64,000 nucleotides of DNA from Eubacteriales bacterium (GTDB taxonomy: Bacteria > Bacillota > Clostridia > Oscillospirales > CAG-272), in contig JAZOSS010000057.1 in assembly GCA_045657205.1 (NCBI GenBank), positions 2,666 to 66,665 of the forward strand. Reading direction: 5' to 3'. Positions 17,369 to 52,605 of this stretch are shown piece after piece. Position 1 is the first letter of the stretch. The number at the start of each line of letters is the position of its first letter. Below the pieces are notes generated by a model that searched no databases, was not told the origin of the DNA, and worked only from the letters and a program-made list of their open reading frames with translations. A program made the translations under genes and the position numbers.

Positions 17369-17596
17369 TTATTTTATGTATCGTCTTCTCATCAATATAT
17401 ACAGTGTGATTATCGCCGTAAGAGCACCTACGACGAACAGACCGAAAAGAATATCGCCCGTATGCGGATTTTGTACGTTTTCCGATACGCTTTCAACGTA
17501 TTCACCGGGAGCACTCTCCGTTGCAAGCGCCGTTACGGAAGCAAACAAAGTGAAGAGCAGCGAAAGAACTGTCAAAATTAATATTAATTTCTTCAT
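17369..17596 (-). CDS. 75-aa secreted mini-protein with a sortase-type C-terminal sorting signal (NPHTG + TM + RRR)
   Basis: Strong RBS AGGAGGA about 8 nt before the ATG. The signal peptide ends in ALA. An NPHTG motif at residues 43-47 is followed by a 21-residue hydrophobic helix and an RRRYIK tail. A hairpin terminator lies at about 17335-17372. Confidence 0.7.
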   Translation of the reverse strand: MKKLILILTVLSLLFTLFASVTALATESAPGEYVESVSENVQNPHTGDILFGLFVVGALTAIITLYILMRRRYIK

Positions 17597-17809
17597 ATCT
17601 TGTTTTCCTCCTTTTTTCTTCTTGTTTCATTTTAGCACATTTTTTCGTCATTGTCAATATCTTTTTAAAATTTTATCAAAATTGGTTAAAAAATATGTAA
17701 TTTTTACTTTCATCAAAGTTTATTTTACTAAATATTTGATTGATTTTTTGTCAACATAAATAACGCAAAGACTGATATAATATATTCAACTATAATATTG
17801 GAGAAGCTT

Positions 17810-18538
17810 ATGAAAACAGTTCTCATTACAGGTGCATCGGGTGGAATAGGAAGCTGTGCCGCCTCGCTGTTTGCAAAAAACGGTTACAACGTATTTATAC
17901 AGTATAACAAAAATGAAAAATCAGCCCTTGAGCTTTGTGAAAAAATAAAAAGCGAAGGTGTGGGCGTCTATGCCTGCCGAGCCGATATAACAAATGAGGA
18001 AGATATACGGCGTATGGTAAGCCTTTGCGAATACAAATTCGGCTCCATTGATATTCTTATCAACAATGCGGGAATATCCGAATTTGCCGTTTTGGAAAAC
18101 ATAACGTCTGAAATGTGGGACAGAATGATGAACGTCAACGTCAAGGGTATGTTTTTGCTGACACGCGCCGCACTCCCCCTTTTGCGTGAAAGCCGCGGGA
18201 AAATAATAAACATATCGTCGATGTGGGGCATATCGGGTGCTTCCTGCGAGGTGCATTATTCATCGTCAAAAGCCGCCGTTATCGGCTTTACGAAGGCACT
18301 TGCAAAAGAGGAAGCTCCGTCGGGAATAACGGTAAACTGTATTGCCCCCGGCTTTATAGAAACCGATATGAACGCATCCCTTTCTGAGGACGCCGTAAAC
18401 GAGATCATAGAAAAAACCCCCCTCGGCAGAGCGGGTACCCCGTACGACGTAGCTTCTGCTATGCTGTTTTTAGCCTCTGACGGTGCAGATTTCATAACAG
18501 GTCAAACTCTGTGCGTTGACGGCGGATTTATACTTTAA
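17810..18538 (+). CDS. SDR-family oxidoreductase (FabG-like 3-oxoacyl reductase)
   Basis: TGASGGIG cofactor motif, NNAG, and the catalytic YSSSK (YxxxK). The start is set at ATG 17810, 7 nt after GGAG. Confidence 0.85.
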   Translation: MKTVLITGASGGIGSCAASLFAKNGYNVFIQYNKNEKSALELCEKIKSEGVGVYACRADITNEEDIRRMVSLCEYKFGSIDILINNAGISEFAVLENITSEMWDRMMNVNVKGMFLLTRAALPLLRESRGKIINISSMWGISGASCEVHYSSSKAAVIGFTKALAKEEAPSGITVNCIAPGFIETDMNASLSEDAVNEIIEKTPLGRAGTPYDVASAMLFLASDGADFITGQTLCVDGGFIL

Positions 18539-18551
18539 ACAATACGGTCTT

Positions 18552-18598
18552 CATTGGGAGACACTTCGTAAAGAAGTTCCTCCCAATTTCTTTTTATA
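18552..18598 (+). terminator. Rho-independent terminator of the SDR gene
   Basis: Nested stem ATTGGGAG..ACTTC-GTAAA-GAAGT..CTCCCAAT followed by TTTCTTTTT. Confidence 0.65.
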
Positions 18599-18966
18599 TT
18601 AAATATGACACTTTCGGCTTGAAAGTGTCATATTGGATTACATACTTTAAAATTATACCTATCTCAAAGATAAATGTAATAAGTGATATTGTGAGACAAG
18701 TCTCACAGTTTTATTTTGCCTTACGGCAAAGTGATATTAAAACCTTTGGTTTTAGTTTTATTATATTCGCTCCAAAACTGCCGAAGGCAATATCACTTGG
18801 ACGAAGTCCAAATATAACAGCGAAGCAATATAACTCGCCGATATGCGAATATAACTGAGGCGCACTTCCTTACGAAGTGCGGCTCTTTCGGAGATCTTTT
18901 TGTTTTTTTGTTTCATTTTTTCTTTTTCGGTGAAAGATATAGTATAAAACGAAAGGAGAAAACATA

Positions 18967-19881
18967 ATGAACATTCGCACAGATATGGCGCACGAGCTGC
19001 GCGAGGAATACATGAAGGAATATTCACAAACCCACGAAGGCGAGCCTGACGGAATAGAATGTGACGTTTACGAATCACACGGCATAAAAACCACAAAGAT
19101 CCGTGTGTTTAATCAAAACGGCTCGGATATTCTCGGAAAACCCATGGGAAATTACTATTCTATGGATGTCGGCAAGCTGTGGATGGCTGATTTTGATAAA
19201 TTCAAGCACGCCGCAAACGAGCTTGTAAAAATAATATCATCACTTTGTGACGTACACTCCCCCGTACTTGTGGCAGGCCTTGGAAACAGATATATAACCT
19301 CCGATGCGATAGGCCCGCTTGCCGTGAACAATCTCGTCGTATCCCACCACGTAAAGCAGTACGAAAGAAAGATATACGATTCGGCAGGACTTGGGGACGT
19401 ATCGGCTATAATCCCCGGCGTTCTTGCCCAGACTGGAATAGAGGCGGCAGAACAGATAAAGGGGGCAGTTGAGATGCTGAAGCCGTCAAGCGTGATCCTC
19501 ATAGACGCTCTTGCCTGCAGAAGTCTTTCATCCCTCACAACGACCGTTCAGATAACTGACACGGGAATATCTCCGGGAAGCGGTGTCGGAAACGACAGAG
19601 GCGAGCTTTCCGAAAAGACCTTCGGTGTAAAGACTGTGTGCATCGGAATACCGACCGTAATTGACGCAAGAACGCTCGTACGGGATGCACTTGAAGCCTG
19701 CACCGTTATGAATGATGAGAAAAAGGACTCGGTCATAAAATGCGCTTATCCCGATAAAGGCAGTTACGTCTGTCCGAAGGATACCGACGTTGCGGTAGAT
19801 GAAATGGCACGCCTTGCAGGATACGCCGTAAACAAGGCGTTTCACAGAACGCTTTCATATGAAGAAATGATGTATATGTAG
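18967..19881 (+). CDS. gpr: Germination protease GPR (spore endopeptidase)
   Basis: 304 aa with the N-terminus MNIRTDMAHE. GPR-like core segments are present (VLVAGLGNRYITSDAIGP, ITDTGISPGSGVGN). AAAGGAGAA RBS. The gpr-spoIIP order is conserved. Confidence 0.88.
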   Translation: MNIRTDMAHELREEYMKEYSQTHEGEPDGIECDVYESHGIKTTKIRVFNQNGSDILGKPMGNYYSMDVGKLWMADFDKFKHAANELVKIISSLCDVHSPVLVAGLGNRYITSDAIGPLAVNNLVVSHHVKQYERKIYDSAGLGDVSAIIPGVLAQTGIEAAEQIKGAVEMLKPSSVILIDALACRSLSSLTTTVQITDTGISPGSGVGNDRGELSEKTFGVKTVCIGIPTVIDARTLVRDALEACTVMNDEKKDSVIKCAYPDKGSYVCPKDTDVAVDEMARLAGYAVNKAFHRTLSYEEMMYM

Positions 19882-23477: not shown

Positions 23478-23553
23478 TAGTAAGAAATCGACTCAGAACT
23501 GTTGAAGTTTATTCATCAGAAAATATTAAATTCTTTTTATTATTACACTATAA

Positions 23554-23646
23554 GCGCCCTGTCCGCACCCCCACAGCACGCAGTAGTTCGCTTCACGAAC
23601 TACTGCGTGCTGCCTGCGGACAAGGGGCGCACACCGCAAGCGGTGT
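23554..23646. repeat. GC-rich imperfect palindrome (about 31 bp of stem) plus an adjacent mini-hairpin
   Basis: Outer arms are GCGCCCTGTCCGCA / TGCGGACAAGGGGCGC. A perfect 17-bp inner stem CAGCACGCAGTAGTTCG / CGAACTACTGCGTGCTG closes a CTTCA loop. ACACCGCAAGCGGTGT follows at 23631-23646. Confidence 0.8.
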
Positions 23647-23689
23647 ATTGAGAACCCGTTTTGTTGTTTTATATTCTTTTTTGATGAAA

Positions 23690-23826
23690 CAAAAAAGAAA
23701 TCGGCTCAAGTTTCGTTTTCACCGTATTATTTACAACCTATAAAAAACACTTGCTTATCTTTTTGGATATGCAAGTGTTTTTGTGTAATTGTAACAAGTG
23801 ATTTATCTAAAAATTAACTTGAGCCG
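23690..23826 (-). terminator. Compound (nested) terminator downstream of the tail-fibre-like operon
   Basis: An 11-bp outer stem CGGCTCAAGTT (23702-23712) / AACTTGAGCCG (23816-23826) encloses an 11-bp hairpin AAAACACTTGC / GCAAGTGTTTT (23744-23781). On the minus strand the outer stem is followed by ATTTCTTTTTT. Confidence 0.55.
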
Positions 23827-23879
23827 GCCCCGTTCATTTTTATATAGAAAATTTTATTATAAAAAAGCGATTTTTATAT

Positions 23880-24353: not shown

Positions 24354-25726
24354 TATCCCTCACCTCCTTCCGCCAGGAGTGTGAGCTGTGTTTTAAGCTC
24401 TTCTATATCGCTTTTCAGCGAATCTATGACGAGAATCGTGTCGGCGTTGTAAGATATCTCAAACGGCACACGGCGAACGTTTACATTTACCTTTGAAGCA
24501 GTAAAAGTTATTTCAGCCGGTGATACTTTATCCACGAACGGTTCTGCATATTCATAATAAACGGTTATATCCGTACCGTTTTCAATTTCACGGTCAATAA
24601 GCGAATAAAACAGTTCTTTTGCCTCATCGCCGCCAAGCTTTTCATCTCCGTATGTAAAATTCATATTTCCGTCATCGTAATAACAGCCATTTTCACATTC
24701 ATCAAGTGTCCCGCACCTTACAAAATGTGTACAAAGCGCATTTATTCCCTTTTTGCCTCGCGGATACATTTCAGACGTATCCGTAAAAATATTTGTATTT
24801 TTATCCGAAGTATTTACGACGCTCACATTGTAAGGAATACTTCCGCAGTCACCGCTTACAGCATCAACAAGAAACAGTTCACCGTAGAGCTTTTTGAATT
24901 TTGCAACGCCTACTCTGTGAATGACTTCGCCTTTTACGACGTCGTAAGTGTCCTTCACTTCATCGTCAAGAGAATATAAAATTATGTCCTTTCCGGGCGA
25001 TATATTATTTGAACCGACAAGTATTCTCGAAGGTCTTTGACTTGAAAAATACGAAGGGGTATCGGGGGATTTTCCATTCGTTGGAACCGTCTCCTGTGTT
25101 TTTCCCAATAACATAAAATGAAAAAGTTTAGAACCGACGAGTACGTTATCGAGAGTTGTCGATGCCGCCACACCGTCGCTTTTGCAGAACACTCTGTAAA
25201 CATTTGCGTAATTTATTGAATGTTCGTAAAGCTCTTTTGCAAGCTCTTGTCTTTCAAGTTCAGCCAAATTGCGTTTTTCTTCAGCAATTACTCTTTCTTT
25301 TTCCTTTTCGGTTACCGAATTTACTTCTTCAAGAAGCTCCGACTGTTCATTTTCCAACTCATCGTAACGGGAGATAAGCTGTAAATATACGTCCTCTACA
25401 GGTTCTGCAGGTGTGCCGTTCGGTGTAAGTATACTGCTTCGGCACGGTATTTTTGCAGGGGCTGTCGTACGCACTGCCGGTGCGTACACACCGAGATATA
25501 CAGCAGGCGGCGATATTATCTCGCGCGGAATAAGCACCGTATTGCTGTTCGGCAAAATAACGTCAACGTAGTTTTTGCCGTTTGTAAATCTTACCGTTTT
25601 CGTTACACCTTCCCACTCCCCGTCAAAAGTGAAATGGACGGAATAATCCGAATTGTCACATATGGCAGGTGGCAGGTCTTTTATTGACGTAAGTGTTTTG
25701 TTTTCGATTTTAAAATCAAATTGCAT
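24353..25726 (-). CDS. Phage tail-fibre / receptor-binding-like protein
   Basis: About 457 aa from ATG 25726 (MQFDFKIENK), after a GGAAAGGA RBS. The N-terminal beta-rich domain, central coiled coil (EQSELLEEVNSVTEKEKERVIAEEKRNLAELERQELAKEL) and C-terminal globular domain fit siphophage tail-fibre architecture. The track extension to 25819 covers the promoter. Confidence 0.65.
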   Translation of the reverse strand: MQFDFKIENKTLTSIKDLPPAICDNSDYSVHFTFDGEWEGVTKTVRFTNGKNYVDVILPNSNTVLIPREIISPPAVYLGVYAPAVRTTAPAKIPCRSSILTPNGTPAEPVEDVYLQLISRYDELENEQSELLEEVNSVTEKEKERVIAEEKRNLAELERQELAKELYEHSINYANVYRVFCKSDGVAASTTLDNVLVGSKLFHFMLLGKTQETVPTNGKSPDTPSYFSSQRPSRILVGSNNISPGKDIILYSLDDEVKDTYDVVKGEVIHRVGVAKFKKLYGELFLVDAVSGDCGSIPYNVSVVNTSDKNTNIFTDTSEMYPRGKKGINALCTHFVRCGTLDECENGCYYDDGNMNFTYGDEKLGGDEAKELFYSLIDREIENGTDITVYYEYAEPFVDKVSPAEITFTASKVNVNVRRVPFEISYNADTILVIDSLKSDIEELKTQLTLLAEGGEG

Positions 25727-51587: not shown

Positions 51588-51707
51588 TTACCAAGACCTG
51601 CCTCGGTACAAATTTTTATAAAAAAAGTATTCCCCCGTTCTGAAGAACGAGGGGAGGGCTATTGACAAAGTGCCAACAGCCCCGAAAAGCAACTTTTCAA
51701 GCAAGAA

Positions 51708-51842
51708 TTAATAAGTAAGTCTTGCTCTGCCCTTAGCGCGACGACGCTTGAGGACTTTTCTGCCGTTAGCGGTTTTCATTCTTTTTCTGAAACCGTGTTC
51801 TTTTTTTCTTTGGCGTTTCTTAGGCTGATATGTTCTGAGCAT
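51708..51842 (-). CDS. rpmH: 50S ribosomal protein L34
   Basis: Hand translation of the minus strand gives [44 protein letters not shown] (44 aa), preceded by AAAGGAGG. It is too short for the ORF track. Confidence 0.95.
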
Positions 51843-52125: not shown

Positions 52126-52410
52126 ATGAAAAAACTTTATTTGATATTTCTCGCTGCCGCAGTGTCGCTTTCGGTCTGCGCCTGCGGAAAAGACGAAAAA
52201 GACAGTACGACGACGAAAACGCCCGCAACAGCACCCGTAACCGACAGAGTGACCGATAAAGTGACGGATAAGGCAACGGACAGAGTTACCGAAAAAGAAA
52301 CGTCAAAGGAAAGCGATACGGTTAACGACGGAGAAGGCGGCGGTCTTCCTGAAATAGTTACCGATGCAATAAGCGATGCGCGCCACTTTTTCGATAAGGA
52401 AATGAGATAA
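52126..52410 (+). CDS. Small lipoprotein with VTD[RK] tetrapeptide repeats
   Basis: 94 aa with a signal peptide and lipobox-like LSVCAC, then VTDR-VTDK-VTDK-ATDR-VTEK repeats. Confidence 0.65.
   Translation: MKKLYLIFLAAAVSLSVCACGKDEKDSTTTKTPATAPVTDRVTDKVTDKATDRVTEKETSKESDTVNDGEGGGLPEIVTDAISDARHFFDKEMR
52237..52296. repeat. 12-bp tandem repeat x5 inside the lipoprotein CDS
   Basis: The units are GTAACCGACAGA, GTGACCGATAAA, GTGACGGATAAG, GCAACGGACAGA and GTTACCGAAAAA. Confidence 0.85.
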
Positions 52411-52415
52411 ACTCA

Positions 52416-52449
52416 AAAACCGCCCCTGCCGATCTGCAGGGGCGGTTTT
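52416..52449 (+). terminator. Rho-independent terminator
   Basis: AAAACCGCCCCTGC / GCAGGGGCGGTTTT hairpin followed by a T-run. Confidence 0.85.
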
Positions 52450-52605
52450 GTGTTACTCTTATCGGTGGAATCGCTTATATGGGTGCAAATAACATTTTCC
52501 GATACTTCGTACATATCGTTGCAAAATATACGTGCAGTGCCATGATCGTAATTCTTTACTCTTGCGTTTTTTCTTTTTGGAAATTATTTTTACATATTCG
52601 CTTCT

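Follow-up and report, generated by a model that had tools for sequence, protein, structure and literature searches.

A Gut-1 family element between an SDR gene and gpr in an Oscillospirales genome, and the extended architecture of its relatives

Introduction

The closest described relative of the element analysed here is Gut-1 (RF01706), a motif reported by Weinberg et al. in 2010 and graded by them as certainly RNA (PMC2864571). It has been an orphan motif since that year, when it was known only from human-gut metagenome reads, and their report was the sole paper mentioning Gut-1 that was found in the literature searched. The 2010 description does not include the ~350-nt unit, the mirror half, the link to terminators, the multi-copy behaviour or the scarcity of wobble pairs (PMC2864571). 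Here we analyse the intergenic block between an SDR gene and gpr in a 64,000-nt stretch of an Eubacteriales genome (contig JAZOSS010000057.1, positions 2,666 to 66,665; hereafter the window), and conclude from its sequence that it is, close to certainly, one copy of the Gut-1 family element.

Several other systems provide a background for comparison. Repetitive extragenic palindromes (REPs) are rare between divergent genes, have a known role in termination and at gene 3' ends, and have cognate genes, the RAYTs (Y1 HUH), which are single-copy. The pneumococcal BOX and RUP and the Neisseria Correia elements lie between genes, are built of modules whose number varies, have a strong predicted fold, and end in promoters or terminators; their copies are near-identical within one species, without compensatory conservation of structure across genera. 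In the protein-sponge RNAs CsrB and RsmZ, short single-stranded motifs are repeated between hairpins. Finally, c-GNA-g loops such as GCGAAGC form hyper-stable DNA mini-hairpins.

Results

Homology of the block to Gut-1

The SDR gene (17798-18538, + strand) and gpr (18967-19881, + strand) are separated by a gap of 428 nt. At curated thresholds Rfam reports nothing in the block that fills it. A permissive scan placed Gut-1 on the minus strand, at 18785-18857, with a score of 39.1 bits (E 3.7e-6), short of the gathering threshold of 50; the other families scanned by E-value over 18450-19050 gave only weak chance matches. The gathering score was passed by 13 of the 18 related loci tested (50.5 bits for L067 and 51.8-64.4 bits for 12 others). 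The low score of the window copy reflects the weakening of its first two hairpins, h1 and h2, and boxes with the sequence GUUAUAUU, not GUGAAAU.

A covariance model, R1, was built from 28 elements, leaving out the window and its closest relatives; eight of its members were shown to lie above the Rfam threshold (L099, L001, L006, L017, L027, L032, L045, and L087). R1 matched 18682-18857 on the minus strand with 164.5 bits (E 1e-29) over model positions 1-174 of 174, and found no second copy in the window. One further match, at 24479-24613 (minus strand; 14 bits, E 0.43), is weak and probably due to chance.

The published seed alignment with its flanks (Weinberg et al. 2010, PMC2864571, supplementary file 95) resembles the window far past the 77-nt Rfam model. 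The seed flanks contain a 5' hairpin (GCGCAC..GUGCGC), GUUAUAUUCGCC, later GGCGAAUAUAAU and GUGAUAUUGCCnnnGGCAGUU, and a downstream run of AAUAUCAC boxes with hairpins in between. In particular, the seeds BAAZ01000095 and BAAZ01025322 carry in their flanks the 5' hairpin called H0 below, the GUUAUAUUCGCC...GGCGAAUAUAAU pair, and the AAUAUCAC-plus-hairpin half. Taken with their flanks, the seeds also agree with the window in the boxes, the centre, and the AATATCAC half. Given the full-length R1 match and the flanks held in common with the published seeds, the block is therefore a member of Gut-1 by homology. An earlier note on this DNA, made from the letters alone, had considered an unclassified structured RNA; its core instead belongs to a described family. 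Judged from its sequence, the window copy is a slightly worn, slightly degenerate member of this known, still unexplained family.

All hairpins and repeats listed in that note are present in the sequence, displaced by 1-2 nt at most, and they are far from chance. The hairpin given there as perfect and of 12 bp is indeed perfect (100% complementary), and its length is 14 bp (arms 18602-18615/18621-18634). The sequence GTGATATT occurs at 18683 and 18731 and its complement at 18789; the three direct copies of AATATAAC lie at 18811, 18827, and 18848; and TATATTCGC/GCGAATATA form a perfect 10-nt inverted repeat (18761-18770 versus 18845-18854). Six of the ten GTKATATT sites of the window are crowded into 175 nt of the block, and a simple scan gave 5 terminator-like sites against 0.6 expected. 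The 231-nt core has fold z-scores of -7.1 (minus strand) and -5.6 (plus strand), and none of 200 shuffled controls was equally stable. The statement that the block is far more structured than other intergenic DNA in the window was too strong, as three other intergenic stretches (23478-23837, 51588-51767, and 52350-52529) have z-scores of -8 to -11.6, equal to or stronger than that of the block. The first of these contains a perfect 17-bp hairpin inside a longer stem between convergent genes, and is probably a bidirectional terminator.

Extent of the unit and its neighbours

Five genomes contain a unit that aligns with window positions 18553 to ~18905, and share no other window DNA. Identity is 96.1% in L074, 90.1% in L067, and 81% in L104 and L066; in a comparison with the entire window, the one stretch in common is 94.6% identical for L074 (18554-18907) and 89.4% for L067 (18554-18901). 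The neighbours of the unit in these genomes are unrelated to SDR and gpr: a quinone reductase and AraC in L104, and in L074 two genes that, judging from their N-terminal sequences, are GlgC-like and efflux-pump-like. Since the relatives share this whole span, a single unit of ~350 nt comprises the hairpin at 18553-18587, the 14-bp hairpin, the core, and H0 with part of the T tract behind it. The first of these hairpins had earlier been set apart as the terminator of the SDR gene. It begins 14 nt past the SDR stop codon and is terminator-like on the plus strand, yet it belongs to the conserved unit, and it is kept as the unit end in L074, L067, L104, and L066.

The order SDR-element-gpr is found only in a strain with 95% Gpr identity (L161; the contig of L162 begins within the element). 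At the gpr orthologues with 80%, 72%, and 66% identity (L167, L164, and L165), different genes lie upstream and the element is absent. The intergenic region of L161 is 95.6% identical to that of the window, compared with 91.6% for SDR, 90.6% for gpr, and 86.4% for spoIIP. The coding potential of a 79-aa open reading frame (ORF) at 18619-18858 was rejected, since two 1-nt indels in L161 shift its frame; in agreement with the earlier note, the ORFs overlapping the block are not genes. The intergenic conservation, the ORF-breaking indels, and the comparison of gpr loci together indicate that the unit is constrained, non-coding, and not a gpr leader, and on this comparative evidence the element does not belong to the regulation of gpr as such. 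A structured non-coding element is supported by its conservation and by real covariation (see below). The proposed leader or operator array of gpr is not supported, the element standing upstream of gpr solely in the closest relative and the same unit standing beside unrelated genes elsewhere.

Architecture, variants, and covariation

On the Rfam strand, which is the minus strand of the window, H0 is followed by four modules composed of a box AGTKATATT and a short hairpin (G1-h1 to G4-h4; Table 1). After G4-h4 come GTT, a short linker, and then GGCGAATATAAT, which is complementary to G1 plus CGCC. The second half consists of three to four mirror-image modules of a hairpin and AATATCACT (h5-h7, A1-A4). 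The ends of the core are inverted 9-mers (AGTTATATT...AATATCACT), the boxes are dyad-symmetric with an irregular spacing of 15-26 nt, and two terminator-type hairpins bracket the whole unit.

Table 1. Coordinates of the Gut-1 copy in the window
Feature	Position	Strand	Remark
Whole conserved unit, ~350 nt	18553..18907		sole stretch of the 64-kb window common to L074 and L067
Terminal hairpin (arms 18553-18567/18573-18587) and T tract TTTCTTTTTATAT	18553..18599	+	15-nt arms, 87% complementary
14-bp perfect hairpin	18602..18634		conserved in window-type subfamily (alignments)
Sigma-70-like site TTGAAA-16-CATACT, directed into core	18619..18646	+	predicted site
Core: box-and-hairpin array (G1-G4, centre, A1-A4)	18682..18857	-	R1 model match
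Box A4 (AATATCAC on minus strand)	18683..18690	-	
Hairpin h7 (TGTGAGA-CAAG-TCTCACA)	18690..18707		6/6 pairs covary
Box A3, variant (AATAAAAC on minus strand)	18708..18715	-	
Hairpin h6 (TTTGCC-TTAC-GGCAAA)	18715..18730		6/6 pairs covary
Box A2 (AATATCAC on minus strand)	18731..18738	-	
Promoter-like site in centre, TTAAAA(18737)-16-TATTAT(18759-18764)		+	
Hairpin h5 (TAAAACC-TTT-GGTTTTA)	18738..18754		6/7 pairs covary
Box A1, variant (AATAAAAC on minus strand)	18755..18762	-	
Centre (TTATATTCGC on plus strand), complementary to 18845-18854	18761..18770		-10-like hexamers on both strands
Hairpin h4 (TGCC-GAA-GGCA)	18779..18789		invariant, but set was selected by same motif
Rfam Gut-1 (RF01706) matched stretch	18785..18857	-	39.1 bits, E 3.7e-6
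Box G4 (GTGATATT)	18789..18796	-	
Hairpin h3 (TTGGAC-GAA-GTCCAA)	18797..18811		3/3 counted pairs covary in family
Box G3 (GTTATATT)	18811..18818	-	
Hairpin h2 (GCGAAGC on plus strand)	18820..18826		
Box G2 (GTTATATT)	18827..18834	-	
Hairpin h1 (CGCC-GATAT-GCG on plus strand)	18836..18847		weakened here; competes with long-range helix
Box G1 (GTTATATT); with adjacent CGC complementary to centre	18848..18855	-	
Hairpin H0 (CGCACTTC..GAAGTGCG)	18857..18885		12-nt arms, one C-C mismatch here
T-rich tract after H0	18895..18912	+	up to ~18907 within conserved unit
			

In an alignment of 33 sequences, the local hairpins and the helix between G1 and the centre are 97% paired, against 81% after shuffling. 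Changes on both sides of a pair occur at 23 pairs and in 191 cells, a level reached by none of 500 shuffles. These compensatory changes, seen family-wide, mean that every hairpin is kept. One pair of the helix between G1 and the centre alternates between two compensatory states (A-U in 17 sequences of the 33, U-A in 15), so that the pairing of TATATTCGC with GCGAATATA proposed in the earlier note is supported by the family. The long-range pairing of GTGATATT with AATATCAC, suggested there as well, was not upheld: the variable box positions show no covariation, and 89.1% of cells are paired compared with 88.8% after shuffling. Nested box-to-box pairing (G4:A1, G3:A2, G2:A3, G1:A4) was likewise rejected, as its variable positions clash and do not covary, and so was loop-loop complementarity between left and right hairpins, for which no correlation was seen by eye in the alignment.

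The number of modules varies. L104 lacks two of them, and L013 has seven modules of the first type and no mirror half; this L013 variant (reverse strand, around 1364-1385) lies in a metagenome-assembled genome (MAG) labelled Bacteroidaceae. In L103 and L095 the boxes read GTGAAAT and the mirror half is absent. Elements that we call type I have GTTTTATT as G1, compensated in the centre by AATAAAAT. At L084 (1-240), at least five identical tandem modules of 19 nt (GTGATATTGCCTGACGGCA) are observed. A divergent variant with the same topology and other sequences is found in Christensenellaceae (L094, L025, and L005), where AAATAAATCC pairs with either a nearby GGATTT or a distal GGATTTATTT, and ATATAAC boxes then follow. 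This variant supports the suggestion that competition between local and long-range pairing is a family trait.

Distribution and genomic context

A pattern scan of one genome per species yielded at least 119 stretches, of which at least 80 are true elements. All of the latter are in gut MAGs from humans and ruminants, labelled Acutalibacteraceae, Oscillospiraceae, Ruminococcus, Faecousia, Ruminiclostridium, Christensenellaceae, Eubacteriales, or Clostridia, and the architecture is kept over several Clostridia families. A search of 2.9 million viral contigs yielded no true element (0 of 41 pattern matches were genuine), and PLSDB plasmids gave no match. An origin from phages or plasmids was rejected on these grounds. 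The lone record labelled as phage (L169, MT835815.1 2578-7701, "UNVERIFIED: Bacteriophage sp.") is an unverified fecal contig that looks bacterial, with a tRNA-Arg, a Gut-1 element, a PF05635 gene, and housekeeping-type genes.

The upstream neighbour of the listed elements is mostly co-oriented with the Rfam strand (49 protein genes and 11 tRNAs, versus 12 opposed), whereas the downstream neighbour shows no preference (25 versus 27). Upstream tRNAs, with many different anticodons, are seen at 11 of the 80 listed loci and number 13 in the hand-curated set. Among 40 fully resolved loci, where E is the element, the arrangements are ->E-> in 19, ->E<- in 13, <-E<- in 7, and the divergent <-E-> in 1. 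The element closes rRNA operons in L011 (2035-2853) and L099 (7-515; 23S-5S-tRNA-Asn-H0-element), and follows 6S RNA in L049 (5600-6001). At another stable-RNA locus, L032 (2222-2533), one element is divergent from the RNA of the signal recognition particle (SRP). A general link to stable RNAs was rejected: BLAST with 5S, 23S, 6S, and SRP RNAs found the known loci only; the link is real, but for a minority of loci.

The family also behaves as a repeat. Of the 80 listed elements, 21 lie at most 300 nt from a true contig end, compared with 3.3 expected; about nine loci have a second box cluster in the same 8-kb chunk, and at least six assemblies have two or more matches. In L017, homology between two copies begins exactly at G1. 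The earlier suggestion of a miniature inverted-repeat transposable element (MITE) or generic repeat is therefore borne out as far as many scattered copies go, and falls short as simple decay, since the structure is constrained.

A conserved partner gene was looked for by clustering 439 neighbouring ORFs, which gave only PF05635 (10 loci and MT835815) and HTH_3 (9 loci). A small PF05635 (23S_rRNA_IVP, four-helix-bundle) gene lies directly downstream at L113, L118, L028, L090, L083, L073, L009, L100, L117, L046, and L110, and at L169 (2734-3099); most of these loci have a TTGAAA-17-TATAAT promoter immediately next to the last box. The HTH_3 (XRE-type) gene is downstream of the element at nine other loci.

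Strand, terminators, and promoters

In the family, H0 is a terminator-type hairpin with a median stem of 13 bp, directly 5' of G1. In 60 of 63 distinct members it is followed on the Rfam strand by a T-rich tail that includes box G1, with at least five T in the next 10 nt. The simple terminator scan listed neither of the two window hairpins (18553-18587 and H0), owing to mismatches or offset tails.

Counted on the Rfam strand, the stems comprise 1580 Watson-Crick pairs, 16 G-U, 21 A-C (equivalent to G-U when the opposite strand is read), and 38 other mismatches. G-U and A-C thus make up ~1% and ~1.3% of stem pairs, compared with 7.3% G-U in tRNAs of the same loci. Purine-rich GNRA or c-GNA-g loops are found in h1-h4 on the bottom strand (28 of 89 distinct loops) and never on the Rfam strand, and in h5-h7 on the top strand (27 of 88), with one on the opposite strand. 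Despite the strong covariation, the near-pure Watson-Crick stems and a loop bias that switches strand at the centre mean that, on the evidence of wobble pairs and loop types, neither a strand nor a molecule, RNA or single-stranded DNA, appears to be singled out.

Across the family, sigma-70-like matches within the core concentrate solely at the AT-rich centre: 31 of 65 members have TTGAAA-17-TATTTT/TATTAT there on the bottom strand, and 15 of 65 have TTGCCT-18-TAAAAT on the top strand. For the outer site TTGAAA-16-CATACT, the -10 is conserved in 6/6 and the -35 in 4/6 members of the window-type subfamily (alignment). About 13 members have a strong outward promoter match right after the last box. 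The promoter-like ATTACA-17-TATAAT after box A4 (minus strand) was discarded, as its -10 is not conserved in the subfamily. A bottom-strand RNA is disfavoured by a terminator that lies, in several groups, 11 nt from the last box, and by the lack of an A tract adjacent to H0 in type I. A top-strand RNA is disfavoured by the start of the element directly after a terminator, and favoured by the variants with only G boxes (L103/L095), which lie between a stop codon and a strong terminator.

Other features of the window

The sole Rfam family above its gathering score in the window is a T-box leader (RF00230; 44894-45133, + strand, 123.5 bits). A 75-aa ORF with hydrophobic N- and C-termini and no Pfam match lies between a glycosyltransferase gene and the SDR gene (17369-17596, minus strand). 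The 14-bp hairpin overlaps a mini-ORF of 10 codons (ATG...TAA, MTLSSRKCHI; 18630-18662, minus strand), which, inspected by eye, is kept in L074 and L067 and has a longer form in L104; the palindrome probably gives rise to it incidentally.

Discussion

A possible role at gene 3' ends

The explanation that we favour, with a probability of about 0.45, is that the block behaves as a self-contained, terminator-linked intergenic repeat resembling REPs and bacterial interspersed mosaic elements (BIMEs) and acting as a 3'-end or insulator module. The observations behind it are the predicted folding of a single strand into GC-clamped hairpins, the conserved box of 8-9 nt between them, and the location at gene 3' ends, apparently in several copies per genome. 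As we envisage it, the strand would fold into short GC-clamped hairpins, between which the box (AGTKATATT or the complementary sequence) would be left unpaired. Because four modules point in one direction and three to four in the other, a polymerase or a strand-specific factor arriving from either side would meet the same syntax, a strong hairpin and then box-hairpin-box-hairpin. The boxes are putative recognition sites of a factor that uses or propagates the element, and the action at 3' ends would be two-sided. In the window, the outer hairpin 18553-18587 with its T tract most likely ends SDR transcription, and H0 with its T tract would stand between the unit and the gpr promoter and separate them.

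A more far-reaching form of this proposal is tentative. Gut-1 would not be a conventional small RNA made from one strand but a mobile, self-contained intergenic module with dyad symmetry in Oscillospirales-type Clostridia; its hairpins would have to form on both strands or in single-stranded DNA, and its 9-nt boxes would be read by an undiscovered factor. It would then represent a Gram-positive counterpart of BIMEs or of the system formed by REPINs and RAYTs, or a dedicated bidirectional insulator after rRNA, tRNA, 6S, and other units.

Several points weigh against the 3'-end or insulator role. The seven hairpins differ from each other, unlike those of REPs, and each keeps its position across genera; such position-specific hairpins look more like one structured RNA than like copied palindromes. 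Variants with the first half only exist, and the placement of the L103/L095 type between a stop codon and a strong terminator argues for transcription of the Rfam strand. As GTGATATT makes a poor U tract, insulation alone would leave the conservation of the boxes unexplained, and the 3-bp stem of h2 would not serve as a terminator hairpin. The boxes have no known binding factor. Moreover, no target-site duplication was seen at the few junctions inspected, no transposase-like family recurs among the 439 neighbouring ORFs, and no empty site was found for this locus, where the SDR-gpr synteny is confined to the closest relative, which also has the element.

Alternative explanations

The chief alternative is that the unit yields one small structured RNA, or two divergent ones, whose boxes would serve as a multivalent binding platform or sponge. 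We consider it possible, if on balance doubtful. In one version the RNA starts in or beside the unit and ends at the terminal hairpins; here it would run on the plus strand, the reverse complement of the Rfam orientation, from TTGAAA-16-CATACT (18619-18646) or TTAAAA-16-TATTAT (18737-18764) to H0 and its T tract. In the other it has the Rfam orientation and arises by read-through of H0. The verdict of certain RNA by Weinberg et al. (PMC2864571) and the strong covariation point to such an RNA. The purine-rich GNRA and GNA loops would lie on the RNA-sense strand if transcription diverged from the centre, which is also the only sigma-70-like hot spot in the core. Also consistent with it are the outer plus-strand -10 conserved in 6/6 members of the window-type subfamily, the inclusion of the T tract after H0 in the unit, the common direction of SDR, the putative RNA, and gpr, and the location of the G-only variants in 3' untranslated regions with a strong terminator downstream. 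Against it, G-U pairs are nearly absent on either strand, in contrast to the tRNAs. Read on the Rfam strand, 60/63 members begin directly behind a terminator, which leaves no room for a promoter; on the opposite strand, a terminator lies 11 nt from the last box in several groups and H0 of type I has no adjacent U tract. The central -35 is lost where h5 covaries, the promoter-like site after A4 is not conserved, and an independent gene would have no reason to shun divergent intergenic regions.

We regard as distinctly less probable a purely DNA-level role, in which the boxes are bound by a DNA-binding or single-stranded-DNA-processing protein (a HUH/RAYT-like enzyme, a roadblock, or an organising protein), the hairpins arise when DNA is single-stranded in the course of replication, and the flanking terminators keep transcription out of the element. 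Stems that are Watson-Crick only on both strands fit this proposal, as do the many 3-nt c-GNA-g loops, including GCGAAGC at h2, the dyad symmetry of the boxes, and the terminator-type hairpins or outward promoters at the borders. Clostridia are, moreover, well supplied with Y1 HUH transposases (PMC6006769). On the other hand, stems of 3-7 bp will not extrude from duplex DNA, the irregular box spacing is unlike that of phased operator arrays, and the strand-specific loop bias argues against plain recognition of double-stranded DNA. The recurrent neighbours are only PF05635 and HTH_3, each at a minority of loci, and none of the phage contigs and plasmids searched carries the element.

That the block is the dead remnant of a selfish MITE, functionless at present, seems very improbable: its multiple copies in differing contexts and the wear of the window copy (weakened h1 and h2, the C-C mismatch in H0, a score below the Rfam threshold) are outweighed by an intergenic region more similar to that of L161 (95.6%) than the flanking genes are (86-92%), by compensatory changes that keep every hairpin family-wide, and by an architecture kept across several Clostridia families. 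Least credible of all is a cis-regulatory leader or operator array controlling the forespore gene gpr, for which only the position 60-410 nt upstream of the gpr start codon speaks, given that orthologues at 80%, 72%, and 66% identity lack the element, that the same unit stands beside unrelated genes in other genomes, and that family members trail gene 3' ends and are tied to no downstream gene family.

Implications

The window and the at least 80 other loci place Gut-1 in named lineages (Acutalibacteraceae, Oscillospiraceae, Ruminococcus, Faecousia, and Christensenellaceae MAGs) and indicate a true unit length that exceeds the Rfam model four- to fivefold. The analysis adds testable properties, namely the terminator link, the mirror modules, the near-wobble-free stems, the strand-flipping loop bias, the multi-copy behaviour, and the PF05635/HTH_3 neighbours. 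The extended architecture and the genomic behaviour, both derived from sequence alone, go beyond the description of 2010. If the REP-like or insulator role is true, a class of genome-organising repeats would be added in abundant gut Firmicutes, and a recurrent cause of MAG fragmentation would be explained. For annotation, the region should not be read as gpr regulatory DNA. The finding is unsurprising as an instance of a known family, yet it makes Gut-1 approachable by experiment.

Comparison with known systems

With the published Gut-1, the window element has in common the successive short hairpins, linkers of the GUGAAAU/GUGAUAUU type, and the habitat in gut Clostridia; it differs in extent, the Rfam model being 77 nt and covering the first half alone, compared with ~350 nt for the window unit.

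The likeness to BOX, RUP, and Correia elements is that of a modular intergenic repeat with a strong predicted fold and promoters or terminators at its ends, whereas in sequence they are unrelated to Gut-1. Like CsrB and RsmZ, Gut-1 presents repeated short motifs between hairpins, but its motif has no GGA and lies in linkers, not loops, and the mirror half has no counterpart in those RNAs. H0 and the right-hand hairpin resemble a bidirectional intrinsic terminator, being GC-rich with T/A-rich flanks, Watson-Crick paired on both strands, and located at gene 3' ends; a terminator, however, needs neither seven more hairpins nor a conserved box of 8-9 nt.

The REP, BIME, and REPIN systems (PMC2817692, PMC3116915, PMC3337134) are similar in being extragenic and located after gene 3' ends, in having a short conserved box 5' of a palindrome with a variable stem, and in occurring as direct and inverted units, for Gut-1 apparently in several copies per genome. 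The differences concern the box, which is AGTKATATT in Gut-1 and GTAG in REPs; the palindromes, of which the seven of Gut-1 are mutually different and position-specific whereas those of REPs are uniform; the copy number, which for Gut-1 appears to be tens at most, with one copy in the 64-kb window, against more than 100 REPs per genome; and the hosts, REPs being found in proteobacteria and Gut-1 in another phylum. Judged by these features, the element appears to work like a REP but is not a member of that family, since it has neither the GTAG box nor the uniform palindromes.

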